From a virus: a stretch of DNA of 25,581 nucleotides. Location: IMG/VR virus record IMGVR_UViG_3300035494_000142; one strand, 5' to 3'. Below are positions 1 through 25,581 of the stretch, piece after piece. The notes beneath the pieces were generated by a model. That model saw nothing but the letters and a program-made list of their open reading frames with translations. It ran no database searches and was not told the origin of the DNA. Each line of letters opens with the position of its first letter. Positions within the stretch are counted from its first letter, which is position 1. The position numbers and the translations under genes are program-made.

Positions 1-127
1 AATTCTTTAAGAGTAATATACTCGCTTGCTGCAACTATTACTTCTAACAACCCTATCCAATCTTCGTTTGTTAGTTTATGCAGCCAAGTCTTCCACAAAT
101 AACGATCGTCAATATCAATGCGGCCGT
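1..127. repeat. Terminal direct repeat copy 1 (identical to 25455-25581); circular-contig overlap or short terminal redundancy
   Basis: Base-by-base comparison of 1-127 with 25455-25581 shows 127/127 identity. An ORF reads straight through the junction. Confidence 0.95.
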
Positions 128-912: not shown

Positions 913-1317
913 TTATTTTAGTCCACGTGATGTTATTCTACACCCAATGTAATCATTATAGTACTCGTCACTTAGTAAGACATCGTGTTCAAATTGCAAT
1001 TTTGTCTCCCAATAGCTCATTGTTACTTTATTCTCACACATTACAAGTATTTCTCGCCGGAATTGGGATATTCCGTTCTTTGCAATAATACTTTTAATTT
1101 CGTTATTTGAGCCGTAATAATCTCGCCAATCTGTTTCTACCTTAACGTGACGTTTATTCTTCTTTCCTTTAAGTGGGGGGAGTTTCTTGGTTGTCCAAAA
1201 GTTCTTCTTGCCAATATACTTCTTATTGTTTACTGTATCATATATGATGTATACAAAACCTTGTGTGTTATTTGGGAGACTTGTTAGTGGTTTGTCTTTG
1301 TAAATCCAGCAATTCAT
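913..1317 (-). CDS. GIY-YIG nuclease-domain protein, SegE-like free-standing (homing-type) endonuclease
   Basis: GFVYIIYDTVNNKKYIGKK fits GIY-(10)-YIG. Downstream DWRDYYGSN...FRREIL...YWETK...YYN matches my recollection of the SegE-type GIY-YIG pattern. AAGGA sits 8 nt before the ATG. Confidence 0.65.
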   Translation of the reverse strand: MNCWIYKDKPLTSLPNNTQGFVYIIYDTVNNKKYIGKKNFWTTKKLPPLKGKKNKRHVKVETDWRDYYGSNNEIKSIIAKNGISQFRREILVMCENKVTMSYWETKLQFEHDVLLSDEYYNDYIGCRITSRGLK

Positions 1318-2093: not shown

Positions 2094-3533
2094 TTATTTC
2101 CAGATGTTTGGTTCTGGGAACTTAGTAATGTCGCGCGCGAGTCTAATTGCAGTGTCTTGATACCATTTAAAGTCTTTCTCTTTAATACGATCGCCGTTGG
2201 TTAGTTTCTTTTCAATGCGATACAATTTAACGCGGTCGCTTGATGATAAGTTCTTAGAAACAACAACTTTATCTTCATTTGATAGTTTAACATTTAGTTT
2301 AACGATGTCCTTAGTTGCAATGTTGTAACGTTTTGCTAGATATTCTGCTTGAGCTGGACCAAATACAACAACGTTAACTGGATTGTTACTGTTGTATACG
2401 CGAACATTAGTGCGAGTAACAAATTGATGCATTGGCTCAAACTCGCGTGTTTGATCAAAGTCGTAACGATCAATACCAATAAACTCGGCTGCTGCTTTAA
2501 CGTGTTCGTTGCTTGTCTTCATTGAAGCAAGCCATACTGCAGTTGTTGAATCTTTATATTCGTTAGTACCAGCTTGTTTAGGAGTTAGGTATTGGCCATT
2601 AACGTTTAGGTTGCGCTTGAACTTAGAGTTAACAGTCCAAATAGTATTGTCAGTTGCAACTGAGTTAACTGCTTGTGCAATTGCTGCGAAGTCTGACTCT
2701 TTAAGTTTGTTAAACAGTGTCATTGACGGGTTTTGTTCACTTACTTGGTAAATTGTTACGCGCTGGCTTAGTTCTTTGTTACGAGCCACCCATGGTTTAA
2801 TAGGTAGAGTTTGGAACTTAATGTCGTATCCGCTAGTTAAGTGCTTATATAGTGGACTTGAATCAAATCCATCACAAAGGAATGTTACATTTGCAAAGTT
2901 GTTGAACATCTGGCCATTGATCAAGTTGAACACTTTTAAAGTATCACACTGCTGGAACATATCATAGCGTTTAATTGCAAGAATATTGTTCTTTGATAAG
3001 CCAAAAACATCGCGCATTTTGCTTGAATCAAAAATAACGTCATCGTTTTCTTGGAAACGGTCTTTTGCAGCCGCTGTAAAGTCTACTTGGACAAATCCTT
3101 CGTCTCCGCCTTTAAGTGAGAATAGGTTCCAAAAATCATTTGTTTGGCTTGAAATGCTAACTGGAATTTCAGTTTGGCCAAAGTACTCAAAATATTCATC
3201 AATGACAAGATCAAACTCGCTATTGATTGTAGACCATTTGTCATAGCTTAGTAATCCATTGTGAGTAATGAAGATAACGTGTTTATTGCTTGAAGTCTTA
3301 AGAACGGAAATTGCATCGCTCAGTTGCGCAGACACTGGTGCTTCGCAGTCTTTGCTGTTAACAAGGATTGCGCAGTTGTTGAAGAGTTTGCAGTGCTCAA
3401 GCATTTGGTCAATACGGGGAACTGCGATGATTGTTTTGCGTCCGCTCTTTGCGATTTGGTTGTAAACAGTTGTGCTCTTACCAGAACCGGCTGATAAACT
3501 TGATTGGTAATAATTGGTAAATACTTTTGACAT
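2094..3533 (-). CDS. P-loop NTPase, SF2-helicase-like; putative replication/initiator protein
   Basis: Walker A SAGSGKST near the N-terminus, an Ia-like IIAVPRIDQM, and Walker B/DExx-like LVIDEYFE. Strong RBS AGGGAGAAAG before the ATG. It is the only replication-type gene in the genome. Confidence 0.6.
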   Translation of the reverse strand: MSKVFTNYYQSSLSAGSGKSTTVYNQIAKSGRKTIIAVPRIDQMLEHCKLFNNCAILVNSKDCEAPVSAQLSDAISVLKTSSNKHVIFITHNGLLSYDKWSTINSEFDLVIDEYFEYFGQTEIPVSISSQTNDFWNLFSLKGGDEGFVQVDFTAAAKDRFQENDDVIFDSSKMRDVFGLSKNNILAIKRYDMFQQCDTLKVFNLINGQMFNNFANVTFLCDGFDSSPLYKHLTSGYDIKFQTLPIKPWVARNKELSQRVTIYQVSEQNPSMTLFNKLKESDFAAIAQAVNSVATDNTIWTVNSKFKRNLNVNGQYLTPKQAGTNEYKDSTTAVWLASMKTSNEHVKAAAEFIGIDRYDFDQTREFEPMHQFVTRTNVRVYNSNNPVNVVVFGPAQAEYLAKRYNIATKDIVKLNVKLSNEDKVVVSKNLSSSDRVKLYRIEKKLTNGDRIKEKDFKWYQDTAIRLARDITKFPEPNIWK

Positions 3534-3554
3534 TTGATCTTTCTCCCTAATATC

Positions 3555-3596
3555 AAAAGGCAGTTGCTACCCATAGCACTGCCTTTTTTCTTTTCT
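3555..3596. terminator. Strong hairpin with flanking T-runs (bidirectional terminator or attenuator) in the leader of the 2094-3533 gene
   Basis: aaaaggcagt (3555-3564) pairs with actgcctttt (3578-3587). An inner gcta/tagc pairing extends the stem. The plus strand continues ttcttttc; the minus strand continues ttttgata. Confidence 0.5.
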
Positions 3597-3684
3597 ACAC
3601 TTTTATTTATCTATTGTAACAGAAAAAGGCACAATTTCTAGGTATTTTTATCACAAAACTTGTAAATCAGGCGATTTTTTCTAG

Positions 3685-3716
3685 TTTTAGAAAAGTGTAC
3701 ATGGGTCCACCAGAGA
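3685..3716. repeat. Left arm of the perfect 32-bp inverted repeat
   Basis: The reverse complement of ttttagaaaagtgtacatgggtccaccagaga equals 4240-4271 exactly. Confidence 0.95.
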
Positions 3717-4239
3717 AAAAAGTGTTACAATTTATCTTAATATTAAAGTTATTTTGTGACACTTTTTGAGTGTCACTTCATGTGGCATAAAAGTGGTATT
3801 TCAACAAATTACACGCAACGAGTGTTAGCGAGTGGAGTGAGATACAATTAGCTCTTAAACAAGTAGATATTTCATTTGCGAAGAGGCCAGCTGGCAGCGA
3901 AGCGAAATGAAATGGATATGACTGGTTCACGTGAGCAAATGAGCGTTAGCGAATGGGCAGGCGAACACGGACTGGTCATATATTAACCACTAAGTCATAT
4001 AACAAATGGCATAGGAAATATCATATCAAATGGAGATGTCATCGTTGTGTGTTCGCCTGCTTCGCCGTCAAACATGTCATTGCCATTTTTTTGTCGCACT
4101 CGCTTCGCTCATCGCTCGCAAAATGGCCATTCCACTTAGACTGTCGTCTTTTTTGCTTCGCACTTCGTTCGCTAACACTCACTTCGCCATTTGGTATTGT
4201 TAGCAACTACTACCATGCTCTATGAAAGGAAAATGAACC

Positions 4240-4271
4240 TCTCTGGTGGACCCATGTACACTTTTCTAAAA
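4240..4271. repeat. Right arm of the perfect 32-bp inverted repeat
   Basis: tctctggtggacccatgtacacttttctaaaa is the reverse complement of 3685-3716. Confidence 0.95.
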
Positions 4272-4286
4272 AAGATTTTAGTCAAG

Positions 4287-4316
4287 AAAAACCCCAATTG
4301 ATGTAATCGCATGGGG
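4287..4316. repeat. 30-bp direct repeat copy 1; hairpin followed by a U-run on the minus strand (terminator-like)
   Basis: aaaaaccccaattgatgtaatcgcatgggg is identical to 4586-4615. It has a cccca/tgggg stem with an inner gat/atc pairing. The minus strand reads ccccatgcgattacatcaattggggttttt. Confidence 0.8.
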
Positions 4317-4515
4317 CAACAAAACAAACAATTTTTAGGAAACATGTAAGAAATGATCATCTTACAAAAATATTTATCTCTCTAAGATCATAGGGTCACG
4401 CAGACGGAACTTCACTAGACCAGAGTGGAATGGAACTAAGCTAAACTAAATGAACTAACACATATGAACTACATTAACACATATATGATATACCTTTCTT
4501 CTATTCTTTCTTCTA
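4287..4515 (-). ncRNA. Candidate ~230-nt minus-strand small RNA, from the promoter at 4522-4550 to the terminator-like repeat copy 1
   Basis: A TTGACT-17-TATAAG promoter lies upstream and a hairpin plus U5 at the 3' end. No ORF with an RBS lies in between. Inferred from signals only. Confidence 0.3.
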
Positions 4516-4529
4516 TTCTATCTTATATT
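4494..4529. repeat. Tandem 12-mer x3 (ctttcttctatt, ctttcttctatt, ctatcttatatt)
   Basis: Read directly. Two units are perfect and the third matches 10/12. Confidence 0.85.
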
Positions 4530-4550
4530 AAGCGTGTGTACCAAAGTCAA
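4522..4550 (-). promoter_or_regulatory. Sigma70-like promoter on the minus strand (-35 TTGACT, 17-nt spacer, -10 TATAAG)
   Basis: The minus strand reads ttgact (4550-4545), ttggtacacacgcttaa, then tataag (4527-4522). Each hexamer matches consensus 5/6. Confidence 0.45.
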
Positions 4551-4576
4551 GGGGCACCATTTGACGTGTGTACCAA
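4533..4576. repeat. 12-mer cgtgtgtaccaa x2 (4533-4544 and 4565-4576) flanking a small gtcaa/ttgac hairpin
   Basis: Read directly. The spacing is 32 bp, and the region overlaps the -35 area of the minus-strand promoter. Confidence 0.8.
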
Positions 4577-4585
4577 TCTGCCACA

Positions 4586-4615
4586 AAAAACCCCAATTGA
4601 TGTAATCGCATGGGG
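4586..4615. repeat. 30-bp direct repeat copy 2; the same hairpin/terminator-like unit
   Basis: Exact copy of 4287-4316, located 299 bp away. Confidence 0.8.
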
Positions 4616-4640
4616 TAAAAAGGTATGAAGATATTATAAT
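4611..4640 (+). promoter_or_regulatory. Possible promoter for the plus-strand ORF (-10 TATAAT at 4635-4640, poor -35 overlapping repeat copy 2)
   Basis: A perfect TATAAT lies 45 nt upstream of the ATG at 4685. The -35 region (ggggta) is weak. The palindrome attataat also gives a TATAAT on the minus strand. Confidence 0.3.
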
Positions 4641-4684
4641 GCAACAATATTTACCACCTTATAAATATTTCAAAGGAGAGTACC

Positions 4685-4987
4685 ATGAAGATTGGCATTA
4701 TTAACAAACATCGCGCATCAATTACGTTTAAACGATCCTACTCACGCCACTTGCTTGAATCACTTAGTGTTACTTCTTCGCAAGCTGATGTTATCAGTTC
4801 ATTAGTAATGGGCGACAACCAAATTGCACATTCTATAGGTTGGCTGTACAGCAATAATTGCACCGTTACAACTTCAATTGATATTGATTACAACATCGCG
4901 AGTATGAGCTATGATGTGTTCTTTAAACTAACTGTCCATTCTGCAAATATTGAAGAAGTTGTAACATTCCTCTCACTTTCTGGTTAA
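4685..4987 (+). CDS. Hypothetical 100-aa protein; the only convincing plus-strand gene
   Basis: Strong RBS AAAGGAGAG 6 nt before the ATG. The ORF ends before a shared bidirectional terminator. I recognise no family motif. Confidence 0.7.
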   Translation: MKIGIINKHRASITFKRSYSRHLLESLSVTSSQADVISSLVMGDNQIAHSIGWLYSNNCTVTTSIDIDYNIASMSYDVFFKLTVHSANIEEVVTFLSLSG

Positions 4988-5167: not shown

Positions 5168-5192
5168 AAAAAAGGAGCAATTGCTCCTTTTT
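5168..5192. terminator. Bidirectional rho-independent terminator between convergent genes
   Basis: Perfect palindrome aaaaaggagcaa/ttgctccttttt, with A-runs and T-runs on both sides. Confidence 0.75.
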
Positions 5193-21528: not shown

Positions 21529-21708
21529 TTACATTACAGTGAAAGTAATGTTTTTTGGCAAGCTCACGTTAAGCCATGCATCATATGAACCTGTTGCACA
21601 AACATACGTTGGTGTCACTTCGTTAAGCTCAAAACCAGTATTTTTAAGATTTTGTAAGATCATTGGTAGATGTGCTGGAGTAAAGTTTTCAAGTTTCTTT
21701 TTAGTCAT
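21529..21708 (-). CDS. Small protein, 59 aa (MTKKKLENFTPAHLPMILQNLKNTGFELNEV...)
   Basis: Just below the ORF-track cutoff. Its ATG overlaps the tail fibre stop region, and it fills an otherwise empty 210-nt gap. Confidence 0.55.
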   Translation of the reverse strand: MTKKKLENFTPAHLPMILQNLKNTGFELNEVTPTYVCATGSYDAWLNVSLPKNITFTVM

Positions 21709-24700
21709 AGTGTTGTATATCCCATTCTTTTACAGTAAAGTCAGAACCAAAGTATTCAATTTTAATACGATAAATGTCATATCCAGTAGTTGGGCGCGTT
21801 AAAGTTGCTTTGCGAGTTCCTGTATTATACCAGCTGGGAATATTTGCATAACTCACATACGATGATCCGCCATATGGATTTTGAATTGATCCGTCACGTG
21901 GAGGAGTAATATTGTATACTTCAACACTAGGACTTCCGTGCCACGAAGGAATTTTAATAAACACTTCGTGTGTCCAAGAAATACCAAATCCTTGGTTCCA
22001 AAACATTAACATGCTTTCTGGATTAACTGCCTCTAACCAAGCACCGCTTTCGTAATTAAATGTACTAACAGTAGGTTCAAATTCAGTAATAGTACGGCGG
22101 AATATTGACTTAGTGTTATACTCTGCTAGCTGGTAAAAGGCACTATCGTTGTCATTAAACACATAAGCAGCGTGATAATAATCATGTTGATTAACAGGGA
22201 ATCCCATGAATGTTGCAGCGTTTGACATTGTGAACGTTTGTGATGCACTATTGTGGTTCCAGAAACCATTTGTTGAGTACTGACTTGATTTGTTAACAGT
22301 TGTCCACATACTAAAGTCTGGGTGGTACAAGTTGCAACGGTGTGCATGGTTCACATTAAAATTTGGTGTTGTTGTTGAGCCAATTGGAATGTCGTCAATA
22401 CTAGCACGAATATCATAAACGTTTGATGGCTGTCCGGTTACGCTGTTTGCATCACGCGCTGTACGTAATACAATATTCGCACCGCCTTCGTTTGGTCGCA
22501 CGTGGTAGAATGCTGCGGCTAGGCCTGATCCCGGATCTTTTGCAGTAATGCCAAACGTTGATGTTGTTTGTACTTCTAATGGTACGTCAATTGACACTTT
22601 GTTATTGATTGAATCAGTTAATGTATTACCAGATAAGTCTCCATTGAAGCCGCCGCCGCCTAATTGTGTGTCAACATATTCTTTAGTGACTGCATCAGAG
22701 AGTAACAACGGTGTCCCTAGATTTGTAATGCGGTATCCGCTTGCATTTAAATCGCCGCCCAGTGACGGGGTTGTGTCTTCAGCAACTTCAGTTATTCCGC
22801 TAAGATTAACAGTTTCCCATTGCAGATTACCAACGCCATTAACAGTTAAAAAAGATCCTGCAGGGCCAGCTGGTAGGTCAGTCCAGTTTGTACCGTTGTG
22901 GGTTAACATTGACCCGTTTGTTGGAGTTCCAATATATGCAACGTCAGTTAATGCGCCTAGGTTTGTTGCTTGTGTTCCTGGCTCAAGCCGCTGCACAGAA
23001 GAATTCCAAACAAGGGTCTCACCGTCACTAATGCCTGTTGTTGACACATCAGAGAGTGAATCAATTGATTGCCCAACAATATCCTTAAGGTAGTTTTCTG
23101 ACGCGTGATCACCCCATGAGTAAGCTGTTGACCAGTTTGAAATTTGCGCCGCTGTAATACCACCTGCCGGACTTGCTGTGAAGACTGGATCAGTCTCACT
23201 TGTTAAGTAACCACTTGTTGCGTGATCACCCCATGAGTAAGCTGTATTCCAATTGGTGATGTTTGTACTTGTAATACCACTTGCAGGGCTTGCTGTGAAG
23301 ACTGGGTCAGTTTCGTTGAATGCTGACAATTCAAAATACGTTGTGCCGCTCCAACGATATGCTTTATTTGTATCAGTTGTTACGTAAATCTTGCCTACTT
23401 CCCCTACAGCTGGAAGTGTAGCATAAGACGAAGCTTCAATTACATCATCAACATACGAAGGAAGTTGCCCAGCTGGAACTTTTCCAGCACTGTCTAAGCC
23501 AGCAATACCGTTTGGTTGCCCAATATTGGATTGTAAAGCATAGCCCGCTGTTGAATGATCACCCCATGAGTAAGCTGTGTTCCAATTAGTGATGTTTGTA
23601 CTTGTAATACTACCAGCTGGGCTTGCTGTGAATATTGGGTCAGTTTCACTTGTTAAGTAACCACTTGTTGAATGATCACCCCATGAGTAAGCTGTGTTCC
23701 AGTTACCAATATTAGTATTAGTAATTGTATAAGATGGACTTGCTGTAAAGATTGGATCAGTTTCGTTAACTGTGGTGTTACCTGGTTCAAACTGGCCTGT
23801 TATATCATTGTATTGCAATACTTGGCCATTAGTAATACCGGCTGTGTTAACATCACTTAATGTATTGATTGACTGTGAAGAAATGTCAGTCAAATAACCA
23901 ACATCATTTGCAAATGCAGAAATATTTCCGGGGGTTACGTAACTTATAACACCAGTGTTTGGGTCATATGAAATATCACCGCTTGCGCTAATCGCATCCC
24001 GGGCACGGCTATTAGTGTAATATAGGTTATCACCTTCAACTAAATCGCTAGTTGTTTTTAATACAAAGCTTTGATCAAACAGTGCAGTATAAGCAGTGTT
24101 AACCCAAACATTGTTAGTACTATCCCAGCGTATAACGTCATTGCTTTGTGGGGATTCTGCAGATACGTCATCAAGGTTAGTAAAATCAGCCGATGTTTTA
24201 ACTTGGACAAATACTTGCCCAACAGTACCATGGCTGCGAACAACAAAGCCAACTAACACTGATTTACTTGGAAACTGCGGGCGCGTTGATGTAAATTGTC
24301 CCGGGGTTTCACTTAACCAAAGAACAGTGCCTTCCGGATATGCTAGTGTATTAACATCGCGAACAATACCAGCTGTTGTAACAAATCCAGTTTGGTTGTT
24401 AGCGATTTCTTGTGTTGCAATCGCAATTGTTGTATCACTTGATACATTAAACAGCGCTGAAGCTGGTTCAACAGTAAGTGTTTGACTAGATGCGCCAACA
24501 ACACGAACAACTGCGCCATTTGGTATAGTTGCACCTGTGACGTTTCTTACTTTTATTAATAGCTCTTGACCAACGTCTAGCGTGACTTCGTTATTCAATC
24601 CAATTGATATACAGGTGTGATCCGGATTCCACACCATTCTACCTGGAATTGGGAGTGTTGAAGTGTTTTGGTTTAAATCTACGTAATCAACTGTTGCAAC

Positions 24701-25033
24701 TCCGCCAGTTAATCCACTAAGTGACGTGATATCAGTGTTTGCACCATTTTCTGCTCGTGTTGCAATTTCTGTATCAGTGTATGTATTAGCTGTAGATAGC
24801 GTTGTAGCACTACTATCATCAACGTAGGCTTTGTTTGTTGCATGATCAAGCTCAACAGGAGTTGGTACGTTTGCAATAACATTTCCGTTAGCGTCTAGAC
24901 GTGCAGAGAGCGATGGGTTTGTATCTTGGCTTAAGCTTTCTAATTTATCGTTGTTTAAATTAGTAAAGTTATCGTCAAGCTCGCGATGAGTTAACGGTCT
25001 ACTTAAGCCACTTCGTGTCGTGATGTTTGACAT
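21701..25033 (-). CDS. Long tail fibre, 1110 aa, with internal repeat modules
   Basis: Four 39-aa ETDP(I/V)FTASP...NW(N/S)TAYSWGDH units, an NGIAGLDSAGKVPAGQLP motif and SLSDV modules. AAAGGAG lies 7 nt before the ATG. Confidence 0.85.
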   Translation of the reverse strand: MSNITTRSGLSRPLTHRELDDNFTNLNNDKLESLSQDTNPSLSARLDANGNVIANVPTPVELDHATNKAYVDDSSATTLSTANTYTDTEIATRAENGANTDITSLSGLTGGVATVDYVDLNQNTSTLPIPGRMVWNPDHTCISIGLNNEVTLDVGQELLIKVRNVTGATIPNGAVVRVVGASSQTLTVEPASALFNVSSDTTIAIATQEIANNQTGFVTTAGIVRDVNTLAYPEGTVLWLSETPGQFTSTRPQFPSKSVLVGFVVRSHGTVGQVFVQVKTSADFTNLDDVSAESPQSNDVIRWDSTNNVWVNTAYTALFDQSFVLKTTSDLVEGDNLYYTNSRARDAISASGDISYDPNTGVISYVTPGNISAFANDVGYLTDISSQSINTLSDVNTAGITNGQVLQYNDITGQFEPGNTTVNETDPIFTASPSYTITNTNIGNWNTAYSWGDHSTSGYLTSETDPIFTASPAGSITSTNITNWNTAYSWGDHSTAGYALQSNIGQPNGIAGLDSAGKVPAGQLPSYVDDVIEASSYATLPAVGEVGKIYVTTDTNKAYRWSGTTYFELSAFNETDPVFTASPASGITSTNITNWNTAYSWGDHATSGYLTSETDPVFTASPAGGITAAQISNWSTAYSWGDHASENYLKDIVGQSIDSLSDVSTTGISDGETLVWNSSVQRLEPGTQATNLGALTDVAYIGTPTNGSMLTHNGTNWTDLPAGPAGSFLTVNGVGNLQWETVNLSGITEVAEDTTPSLGGDLNASGYRITNLGTPLLLSDAVTKEYVDTQLGGGGFNGDLSGNTLTDSINNKVSIDVPLEVQTTSTFGITAKDPGSGLAAAFYHVRPNEGGANIVLRTARDANSVTGQPSNVYDIRASIDDIPIGSTTTPNFNVNHAHRCNLYHPDFSMWTTVNKSSQYSTNGFWNHNSASQTFTMSNAATFMGFPVNQHDYYHAAYVFNDNDSAFYQLAEYNTKSIFRRTITEFEPTVSTFNYESGAWLEAVNPESMLMFWNQGFGISWTHEVFIKIPSWHGSPSVEVYNITPPRDGSIQNPYGGSSYVSYANIPSWYNTGTRKATLTRPTTGYDIYRIKIEYFGSDFTVKEWDIQHYD
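23081..23314. repeat. Two tandem 117-nt coding repeats (fibre units 3 and 4)
   Basis: gtgatcaccccatgagtaagctgt recurs at 23105 and 23222. The unit boundaries come from the ETDP codons at 23197 and 23314. Confidence 0.85.
23531..23764. repeat. Two tandem 117-nt coding repeats (fibre units 1 and 2)
   Basis: atgatcaccccatgagtaagctgt recurs at about 23555 and 23672. The unit boundaries come from the ETDP codons at 23647 and 23764. Confidence 0.85.
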
Positions 25034-25260: not shown

Positions 25261-25581
25261 GAAAAAATAATCTCTGTACGGGTTCGTTTGTTACTGGCGT
25301 TACATCAATCTTATTAATTTTGTTCCAAAGTTCGCGCGCGACCATTAGTGTGCGCCATGCTGTTTTTTTATGTTGTTTCTTATCAAGTACACGAGGATCA
25401 ACGTCTTTATATTTCTTAAGAGTAACAATTGCATTCATAATTGCATCTTCTTGGAATTCTTTAAGAGTAATATACTCGCTTGCTGCAACTATTACTTCTA
25501 ACAACCCTATCCAATCTTCGTTTGTTAGTTTATGCAGCCAAGTCTTCCACAAATAACGATCGTCAATATCAATGCGGCCGT
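25253..25581 (-). CDS. 3' part of the junction-spanning 130-aa hypothetical protein (true ATG is at window position 191)
   Basis: The ORF stays open to the window end, and 25455-25581 duplicates 1-127, where the ATG and RBS are found. Confidence 0.7.
   Translation of the reverse strand, partial: GRIDIDDRYLWKTWLHKLTNEDWIGLLEVIVAASEYITLKEFQEDAIMNAIVTLKKYKDVDPRVLDKKQHKKTAWRTLMVARELWNKINKIDVTPVTNEPVQRLFFHD
25455..25581. repeat. Terminal direct repeat copy 2 (identical to 1-127)
   Basis: Same comparison as for 1-127. Confidence 0.95.

Follow-up and report, generated by a model that had tools for sequence, protein, structure and literature searches.

Location and anatomy of the element

The DNA analysed here, referred to as the window, is a phage stretch of 25,581 nt (IMG/VR virus record IMGVR_UViG_3300035494_000142). 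It has only one large gap between genes, which is 1151 bp in length (3534-4684) and situated between divergently oriented genes. Within this gap lies a 587-bp foldback element (3685-4271), located upstream of the gene of a stand-alone superfamily 2 (SF2) helicase, the start of which is 152 bp away. The element is closed by a perfect 32-bp inverted repeat, for which the coordinates given in an earlier note, made from the sequence alone, were borne out. The two arms are separated by 523 nt and form sites 555 bp apart. The features of the element are:

3685-3716, no strand: left arm, 32 bp, of the perfect inverted repeat, TTTTAGAAAAGTGTACATGGGTCCACCAGAGA, with one AAAAGTGT in its outer part
3717-3776, no strand: AT-rich sub-region on the inner side of the left arm, with a local hairpin, an 8-bp hairpin and two further AAAAGTGT
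3820-3832, plus strand: 13-mer GAGYGTTAGCGAR, copy 1
3828-3965, plus strand: left array of six GCGAR pentamers, starting at 3828, 3878, 3897, 3902, 3949 and 3961
3941-3953, plus strand: 13-mer GAGYGTTAGCGAR, copy 2
3957-4060, no strand: apical unit, a perfect 12-bp inverted repeat GCAGGCGAACAC around about 80 nt rich in GTCAT/TCATAT
4004-4192, alternating strands: four AAATGGC heptamers (4004 plus, 4082 minus, 4121 plus, 4186 minus), spanning less than 190 bp
4052-4187, minus strand: right array of eight GCGAR pentamers, read as YTCGC at 4052, 4061, 4099, 4104, 4115, 4157, 4168 and 4183
4168-4180, minus strand: 13-mer GAGYGTTAGCGAR, copy 3, inverted
4240-4271, no strand: right arm, 32 bp, of the perfect inverted repeat, also holding one AAAAGTGT

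The element is non-coding. JGI gene calling placed no gene within it, and codon-usage scores of all internal open reading frames (ORFs) range from -0.07 to -0.16, compared to +0.10 to +0.65 for the genes of the phage. No Pfam match, Shine-Dalgarno sequence or database record was found for the small internal ORFs. The segment had been described as ORF-free, which holds in so far as it contains no credible gene, but not to the letter, since a 90-aa ORF with an ATG start exists at 3953-4225 on the plus strand.

Repeat families within the element

The orientation of the GCGAR pentamers is strictly mirrored: they occur on the plus strand only in the left half and on the minus strand only in the right half, with none reversed. 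In the orientation given by the arms, GCGAA was observed 11 times, compared to 0.68 expected occurrences. The recurrence of GCGAA on the left and TTCGC on the right that had been noticed earlier is confirmed in this form, with six copies of GCGAR on one side, eight of YTCGC on the other and none in the opposite sense. The longer GCGAAG has six of its 17 genomic copies inside the element. The 13-mer GAGYGTTAGCGAR has three exact copies in the entire genome, all of them in the element; two had been recognised before as GTTAGCGA(A/G)TGG, and the third is located on the minus strand.

Two further families complete the arrangement. Four of the 12 AAATGGC heptamers in the genome are found inside the element, and an inverted pair (2034 plus, 2070 minus; 2034-2076) lies directly downstream of the helicase stop codon. 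The motif AAAAGTGT has five of its six genomic copies within 3597-4265. One of these (3597-3604, minus strand) is located outside the element, which thus shares sites with its flank.

Both hairpins described as private to one arm were found again, the 8-bp hairpin 3756-3763/3769-3776 by computation and 4192-4196/4211-4215 by reading the sequence. The local hairpin of the AT-rich sub-region (3717-3738/3746-3767) has 22-nt arms that are 82% complementary. The nested inner blocks are perfect as reported, at 3820-3831/4169-4180 (12 bp), 3896-3905/4100-4109 (10 bp) and 3957-3968/4049-4060 (12 bp).

GANTC, the alphaproteobacterial CcrM methylation site, has 0 occurrences in the 1151-bp gap compared to a genome mean of 4.2 per kb, and GATC has 0 in the 587-bp element.

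Outer inverted repeat and its assembly

When the genome was shuffled 50 times, the longest perfect inverted repeat within 2 kb had a mean length of 12.8 nt, with no case above 16 nt; the 32-bp repeat is far beyond chance. No further copy of the arm sequence besides the two arms is present in the window. If the interior identity of about 0.6 resulted from neutral decay, a perfect run of 32 bp would be expected at about 0.6^32 per position, which suggests that the arms are either constrained or recent.

The repeat is not an assembly artefact, since two independent assemblies from different samples, the JGI contig L001 and the ENA MEGAHIT k141 contig L003, span the element at 100% identity. In both consensus assemblies its orientation is the same as in the window. 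Logan contigs, assembled with k=31, are interrupted precisely inside the left arm and at one 37-bp direct repeat of the gap, as is expected of repeats that are at least 31 nt long. In one ENA assembly, contig L003 ends at 4286 and contig L024 starts at 4244, in or beside the right arm and with an overlap of 43 nt. Low coverage together with the repeat probably explains these breaks.

Source of the inner self-complementarity

When the 523-bp interior was compared with its own reverse complement, a score of 76 was obtained, compared to 9.8 ± 20 in shuffles, which is a modest excess. Each of the long inner helices has a GCGA core. Upon deletion of the 14 GCGAR/YTCGC pentamers, the z-score of the interior self-complementarity dropped from 3.06 to 0.28, that is, to the level of chance, and the nested helices are hence a by-product of two opposed repeat arrays. 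This contradicts the earlier suggestion of selection on structure. It also yields a lesson of method: opposed arrays of a short binding motif can alone produce long-range nested helices, and a quick way to tell selection at the level of structure from selection at the level of sequence is to score the self-complementarity again after the motif has been deleted.

Duplex DNA is unlikely to extrude a cruciform here, since 523 bp separate the arms and the interior shows no palindromy apart from the mirrored pentamers. Snap-back of single-stranded DNA is physically plausible. Protelomerase telomere sites, retron non-coding RNAs and concatemer junctions of the poxvirus type were rejected, as the genome lacks genes for the enzymes that they need and the sequences on either side of the element bear no relation to one another.

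Helicase gene and flanking features of the gap

The remaining features of the gap and the genes on both sides of it are:

2094-3533, minus strand: stand-alone SF2 helicase, 479 aa, with an XPD/DinG-like fold; phrog_2467
3555-3587, no strand: hairpin with a perfect 10-bp stem and flanking A/T runs, following the promoter-like site and preceding the helicase start codon
3597-3604, minus strand: AAAAGTGT outside the element, directly downstream of the helicase promoter-like site
3613-3640, minus strand: sigma-70-like promoter match with extended -10 (TG), directed toward the helicase gene; a consensus match only
4287-4323, no strand: direct repeat DR1, 37 bp, with a CCCCA..TGGGG hairpin
4494-4529, no strand: three tandem CTTTCTTCTATT, inside the low-stability window 4432-4532
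4533-4576, no strand: two CGTGTGTACCAA, 32 bp apart
4586-4621, no strand: direct repeat DR2, 95% identical to DR1, likewise with a CCCCA..TGGGG hairpin and 299 bp to the right of DR1, where Logan contigs break
4685-4987, plus strand: ORFan of 100 aa, divergent from the gap, with a good ribosome-binding site and a positive coding score

The 479-aa helicase is the only recognisable replication gene of the genome. It carries Walker A, Walker B and Q..R..R motifs, and its structure model (predicted local distance difference test, pLDDT, of 90.5) matches best with SF2 helicases of the XPD/DinG/CasDinG type and with uncharacterised phage helicases. With 293 remote homologs, the family is a widespread, uncharacterised phage family. 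In all seven of the seven long homologs tested (800-990 aa), the helicase domain follows an N-terminal region that matches PHROG families of DNA primases or replicative helicase-primases. This fusion supports a replicative role of the helicase family.

The hairpin at 3555-3587 is terminator-like on both strands and could act as an attenuator. A search for sigma-70-like promoters found none inside the 523-bp segment between the arms. To the right of the foldback, 4287-4621 forms a second repeat-rich and AT-rich non-coding block. It includes the window 4432-4532, the second least stable distinct 100-bp window of the genome, in which the stretch of tandem 12-mers is a candidate DNA-unwinding element. 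Within the element itself, the 40-bp window from 3715 is the fourth least stable distinct window of this size genome-wide.

Phage genome and likely host

The ends of the window (1-127 and 25455-25581) are identical over 127 nt, and the JGI contig L001 holds the same sequence in circularly permuted form, indicating that the window represents the whole genome, which is about 25,454 bp long and is circular or has terminal redundancy. Other assemblies read through the gap region and close into a circle via the 127-nt overlap. The phage is novel and of siphovirus type. Its genes encode both terminase subunits (small and large), a portal of SPP1 type, a scaffold, a major capsid protein, a tail tube, a tape measure, a distal tail protein and a tail-tip protein of 1023 aa, and nearly all genes are located on the minus strand.

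Scans of the ORFs with Pfam, PHROGs and NCBIfam, together with the Pfam marks of JGI, revealed no polymerase, primase, initiator or recombinase in the genome, and a scan for tRNAs and tmRNA found none. In its portal, the phage shares about 50% identity with Pelagibacter phages (HTVC111P group) and with the lake phage DSL-LC06, and the genomic relatives of the helicase all belong to Alphaproteobacteria. Based on these two kinships, an aquatic alphaproteobacterium is the likely host.

Three further observations concern other parts of the genome. A 134-aa protein with a SegE-type GIY-YIG homing-endonuclease domain is encoded among the early genes (913-1317, minus strand). A large, tail-fibre-like gene of 1110 aa (21701-25033, minus strand) sits between the early and the packaging genes and contains a tandem duplication of 117 nt (23549-23764; 1.8 copies, 82% identical). 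A perfect palindrome, AAAAAGGAGCAATTGCTCCTTTTT, is located at 5169-5192, likely as a bidirectional terminator where the minus-strand operon meets a short plus-strand unit.

Search for related elements

The collections searched comprised 50,697 phage records, 72,556 plasmids, 185,579 species-representative genomes and the IMG/VR viral contigs. With megablast and blastn, no match to the region was obtained among the phage records or plasmids. As exact patterns, a 22-nt core of the arm was absent from the viral contigs and the species-representative genomes, and the 37-bp direct repeat had no copy in the viral contigs. All other copies of the element that were found are 100% identical to the window. 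The search of viral and metagenomic collections for homologs that the earlier note had proposed thus yielded no diverged homolog of the element, be it in viral contigs, genomes, the phage and plasmid collections or upstream of helicase relatives.

Relatives of the helicase were not found in the viral contigs. They were detected at 15 metagenome loci, with identities of 22-28%, and at 10 alphaproteobacterial genome loci, and the closest relative is a cluster of three loci (L004-L006) with 45% identity. No comparable long-range inverted repeat is present at the helicase-relative loci of any of these three groups. The relatives identified by the portal, DSL-LC06 and HTVC111P, have neither the helicase nor such an inverted repeat.

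Proposed function

On balance, we consider it somewhat probable that the element serves in general as a region of protein-binding DNA. The more specific proposal, that it forms the core of a replication origin combined with an early control region, is put forward tentatively, as a serious possibility that falls short of being probable. An origin is nevertheless the best single reading, because the only replication gene adjoins the element and easily melted tandem repeats lie alongside. As in iteron-type origins, the locus combines a region-specific cluster of short sites, an adjacent AT-rich stretch that melts easily and a linked replication gene. Of the hypothesis of an origin or initiator-binding array raised in the earlier note, the array part fits best, given the clustered repeats, the low-stability tandem repeats and the neighbouring helicase, whereas the cruciform part is unlikely.

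Under this proposal, the element would act as double-stranded DNA carrying a dense array of protein-binding sites. Two identical, inverted 32-bp sites bracket the opposed GCGAAG-type arrays, including the three 13-mers, plus the four AAATGGC heptamers, and the AAAAGTGT sites extend from the arms to the promoter region of the helicase gene. One or more proteins of the phage or the host may bind these repeats symmetrically. Melting would begin in the adjacent low-stability DNA, at 3715-3770 and especially in the block of three 12-mers at 4432-4532. The stand-alone SF2 helicase would then be loaded, and host enzymes would provide priming and polymerisation. Protein binding, origin activity and helicase loading are steps that we infer from the layout of the locus.

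The raw cumulative GC skew reaches its maximum at 4051, inside the element. After detrending, only a broad plateau is left, so that the peak largely reflects the composition of the element itself and was given little weight. This and several other points weigh against an origin. Motifs for DnaA, CtrA and IHF as well as GATC are not enriched. No initiator or origin-binding protein is identifiable in the genome, and the adjacent 100-aa ORFan has no significant fold match (single-sequence model with pLDDT 78; best PDB match with E = 0.13). The perfect match of 32 bp exceeds the length that most binding sites need. In addition, two loci of the closest helicase cluster (Logan contigs L004, 1-1199, and L005, 1-1181) have at least 1.2 kb without a called gene upstream of the helicase, in which no long inverted repeat and just two AGCGAG motifs were found. 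Conservation of the architecture of the element is thus not demonstrable. In this small phage group, a long non-coding leader may itself be a conserved trait.

Alternative explanations

A transcriptional control region with no role as an origin would use the same repeats as operators, and a multimeric repressor or activator could loop the 32-bp sites 555 bp apart and thereby control divergent early promoters. The position of the element between divergent genes and directly upstream of the helicase promoter-like site is consistent with such a function, as is the distribution of AAAAGTGT, with one copy directly downstream of the promoter-like site and others in the arms. The evidence for a repeat array at the DNA level is the same as for an origin. 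However, the genome has no recognisable DNA-binding regulator, about 25 repeat copies of three families over 600 bp go far beyond known phage switches, and tandem 12-mers in DNA of the least stable kind fit an origin better. We consider this explanation unlikely.

Somewhat less likely still is a recent insertion of a non-autonomous foldback transposon similar to a miniature inverted-repeat transposable element (MITE), with the arms as its terminal inverted repeats and the mirrored pentamers as subterminal repeats bound by a transposase. The element has the appropriate size of 587 bp, perfect terminal repeats, a degenerate interior and no coding function, and the closest relative is without the foldback. 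Its borders can be read as TA|GAAAAG...CTTTTC|TA, so that a 2-bp TA duplication in the style of Tc1/IS630 is conceivable, TA being palindromic. As the earlier note had said, there is no clear target-site duplication: a non-palindromic one is lacking, and the flanks TTCTAG and AAGATT do not form a direct repeat. The hypothesis is further weakened by the lack of other copies in the collections searched. The 22-nt arm core recurs neither in the window nor in the genomes and IMG/VR contigs, although the genome of the host may lie outside these collections, and the blastn searches of the phage and plasmid collections were equally negative. The mirrored repeats reach the centre and are not confined to a subterminal zone, and AAAAGTGT continues outside the element at 3597.

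The foldback could also be a structure-specific start site of replication, for which we see a slim chance. If transcription, breathing of the flanking DNA of low stability or displacement during rolling-circle replication made the region single-stranded, the 32-bp arms could snap together. The resulting hairpin of about 590 nt might offer the XPD/DinG-like helicase a junction between duplex and single strand for loading, and it could even serve as a primer or as a promoter mimic for host enzymes. It would be the counterpart, in a double-stranded DNA phage, of the single-strand origins of plasmids or of PriA assembly sites. If true, a tailed phage without initiator, primase and polymerase could begin replication in this way.

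We regard it as improbable that the element encodes a structured non-coding RNA of about 590 nt, transcribed off one strand as a long imperfect hairpin. The predicted folding energy is very strong on both strands (z-scores of -10.9 for plus and -11.8 for minus), and promoter-like sites on the minus strand to the right (4544, 4673) could read through the element. Folding both strands, a check suggested in the earlier note, favoured neither of them, as the two fold equally well and G-U pairs show no strand bias (18 on plus, 13 on minus); folding of the element as DNA gave a z-score of -11.2. Comparison with the covariance models of Rfam 15, including GOLLD and ROOL, gave no match at gathering thresholds in the whole window. 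At E<=10, seven weak matches were obtained over 3500-4700, and even of these none overlaps 3685-4271. The large structured RNA suggested before is thus unsupported. The mirrored pentamers fully account for the inner pairing, and no homologs were found that could show covariation. The outer repeat counts against an RNA as well, since a single near-perfect duplex stem of 32 bp would be a substrate of RNase III and is unlike known ornate RNAs.

Equally doubtful is a cis-acting site for genome ends or DNA transit, such as a packaging or terminus-proximal signal, or a structure for injection stop or exonuclease protection like the iss region of phage T5. The element lies in the sole large stretch without genes, which precedes the early genes, a place where many fixed-end phages have their termini. 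T5 iss, 1.66 kb of non-coding DNA, abounds in direct and inverted repeats (bioRxiv 10.1101/866236). The ENA contig ends at 4286 and 4244, in or beside the right arm, could be taken as a trace of termini. This assembly is fragmentary, however, and its breaks are probably accounted for by low coverage and the repeat as described above; other assemblies read straight through and circularise, and the terminase genes are 16 kb away.

The least probable explanation is an inverton, in which a site-specific recombinase flips the 523 bp between the 32-bp repeats and thereby switches the flanking early genes: a perfect inverted repeat of about 30 bp around a few hundred non-coding bp between genes is its standard signature, and possible viral invertons have been described (PMC13501310), but the genome has no recombinase or invertase domain, L001 and L003 are both in the orientation of the window, lookups of the neighbouring genes for inverted or empty-site variants gave only identical copies in the same orientation or contigs broken at the repeats, the segment holds no sigma-70-like promoter, and a flip would change little because the motif content of the interior is mirror-symmetric.

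Comparison with known systems

The ornate RNAs ROOL and GOLLD fall into a similar length class and are likewise located in phage genomes. The element differs from them in having neither a covariance-model match nor a strand preference, and its simple mirror architecture is explained by repeats and not by a multi-branched fold. With MITEs and foldback transposons it shares perfect terminal inverted repeats, small size, the lack of coding function and a strong predicted foldback, whereas it is single-copy in all collections searched, has no clear target-site duplication and contains repeat families that are common to its flank.

The core origins of polyomaviruses and papillomaviruses contain GAGGC pentamers in inverted pairs, which are bound by a helicase-initiator. 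Pentanucleotides mirrored about a centre, an AT tract, a viral helicase and a polymerase borrowed from the host are features in common. The element is about 10 times larger, and its helicase belongs to SF2 instead of SF3 and has no evident origin-binding domain. The resemblance is an analogy only and does not imply homology.

Large repeat-rich non-coding regions with a cis-acting or origin function have precedents in the 2.7-kb non-coding region of the phage-inducible chromosomal island-like element (PLE) (PMC7145576) and in T5 iss (bioRxiv 10.1101/866236). T5 iss is also a large untranslated region with dense direct repeats, long-range inverted repeats and palindromes, for which a cis role at the DNA level is thought. 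It has DnaA boxes that are conserved and is itself conserved across 25 relatives, whereas the element shows no enrichment of DnaA boxes and is not shared by any relative.

The closest parallels are found with iteron-type origins such as lambda ori and the PLE origin (PMC7145576), which likewise have clustered short repeats, a large non-coding region, an adjoining replication gene and, next to them, AT-rich DNA that melts readily and contains tandem repeats. The element differs in that it has no recognisable initiator gene and no DnaA boxes, and in that its repeats form two opposed arrays enclosed within a perfect 32-bp inverted repeat whose sites lie 555 bp apart. We know of no described phage origin in which opposed arrays are bracketed by a 32-bp inverted repeat.

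Origins with iterons and inverted repeats are thus known already from phages and plasmids. The practical value of the present case is limited, as the phage is uncultured and the element is unique to it. What is unusual is the combination of opposed pentamer and 13-mer arrays, the widely spaced perfect inverted repeat and a stand-alone SF2 helicase as sole replication protein. If the element is indeed an origin, it would show by what means a minimal phage of 25 kb with kinship to pelagiphages can initiate replication when an SF2 helicase is all it has, from a cis site with an unusual mirror layout.

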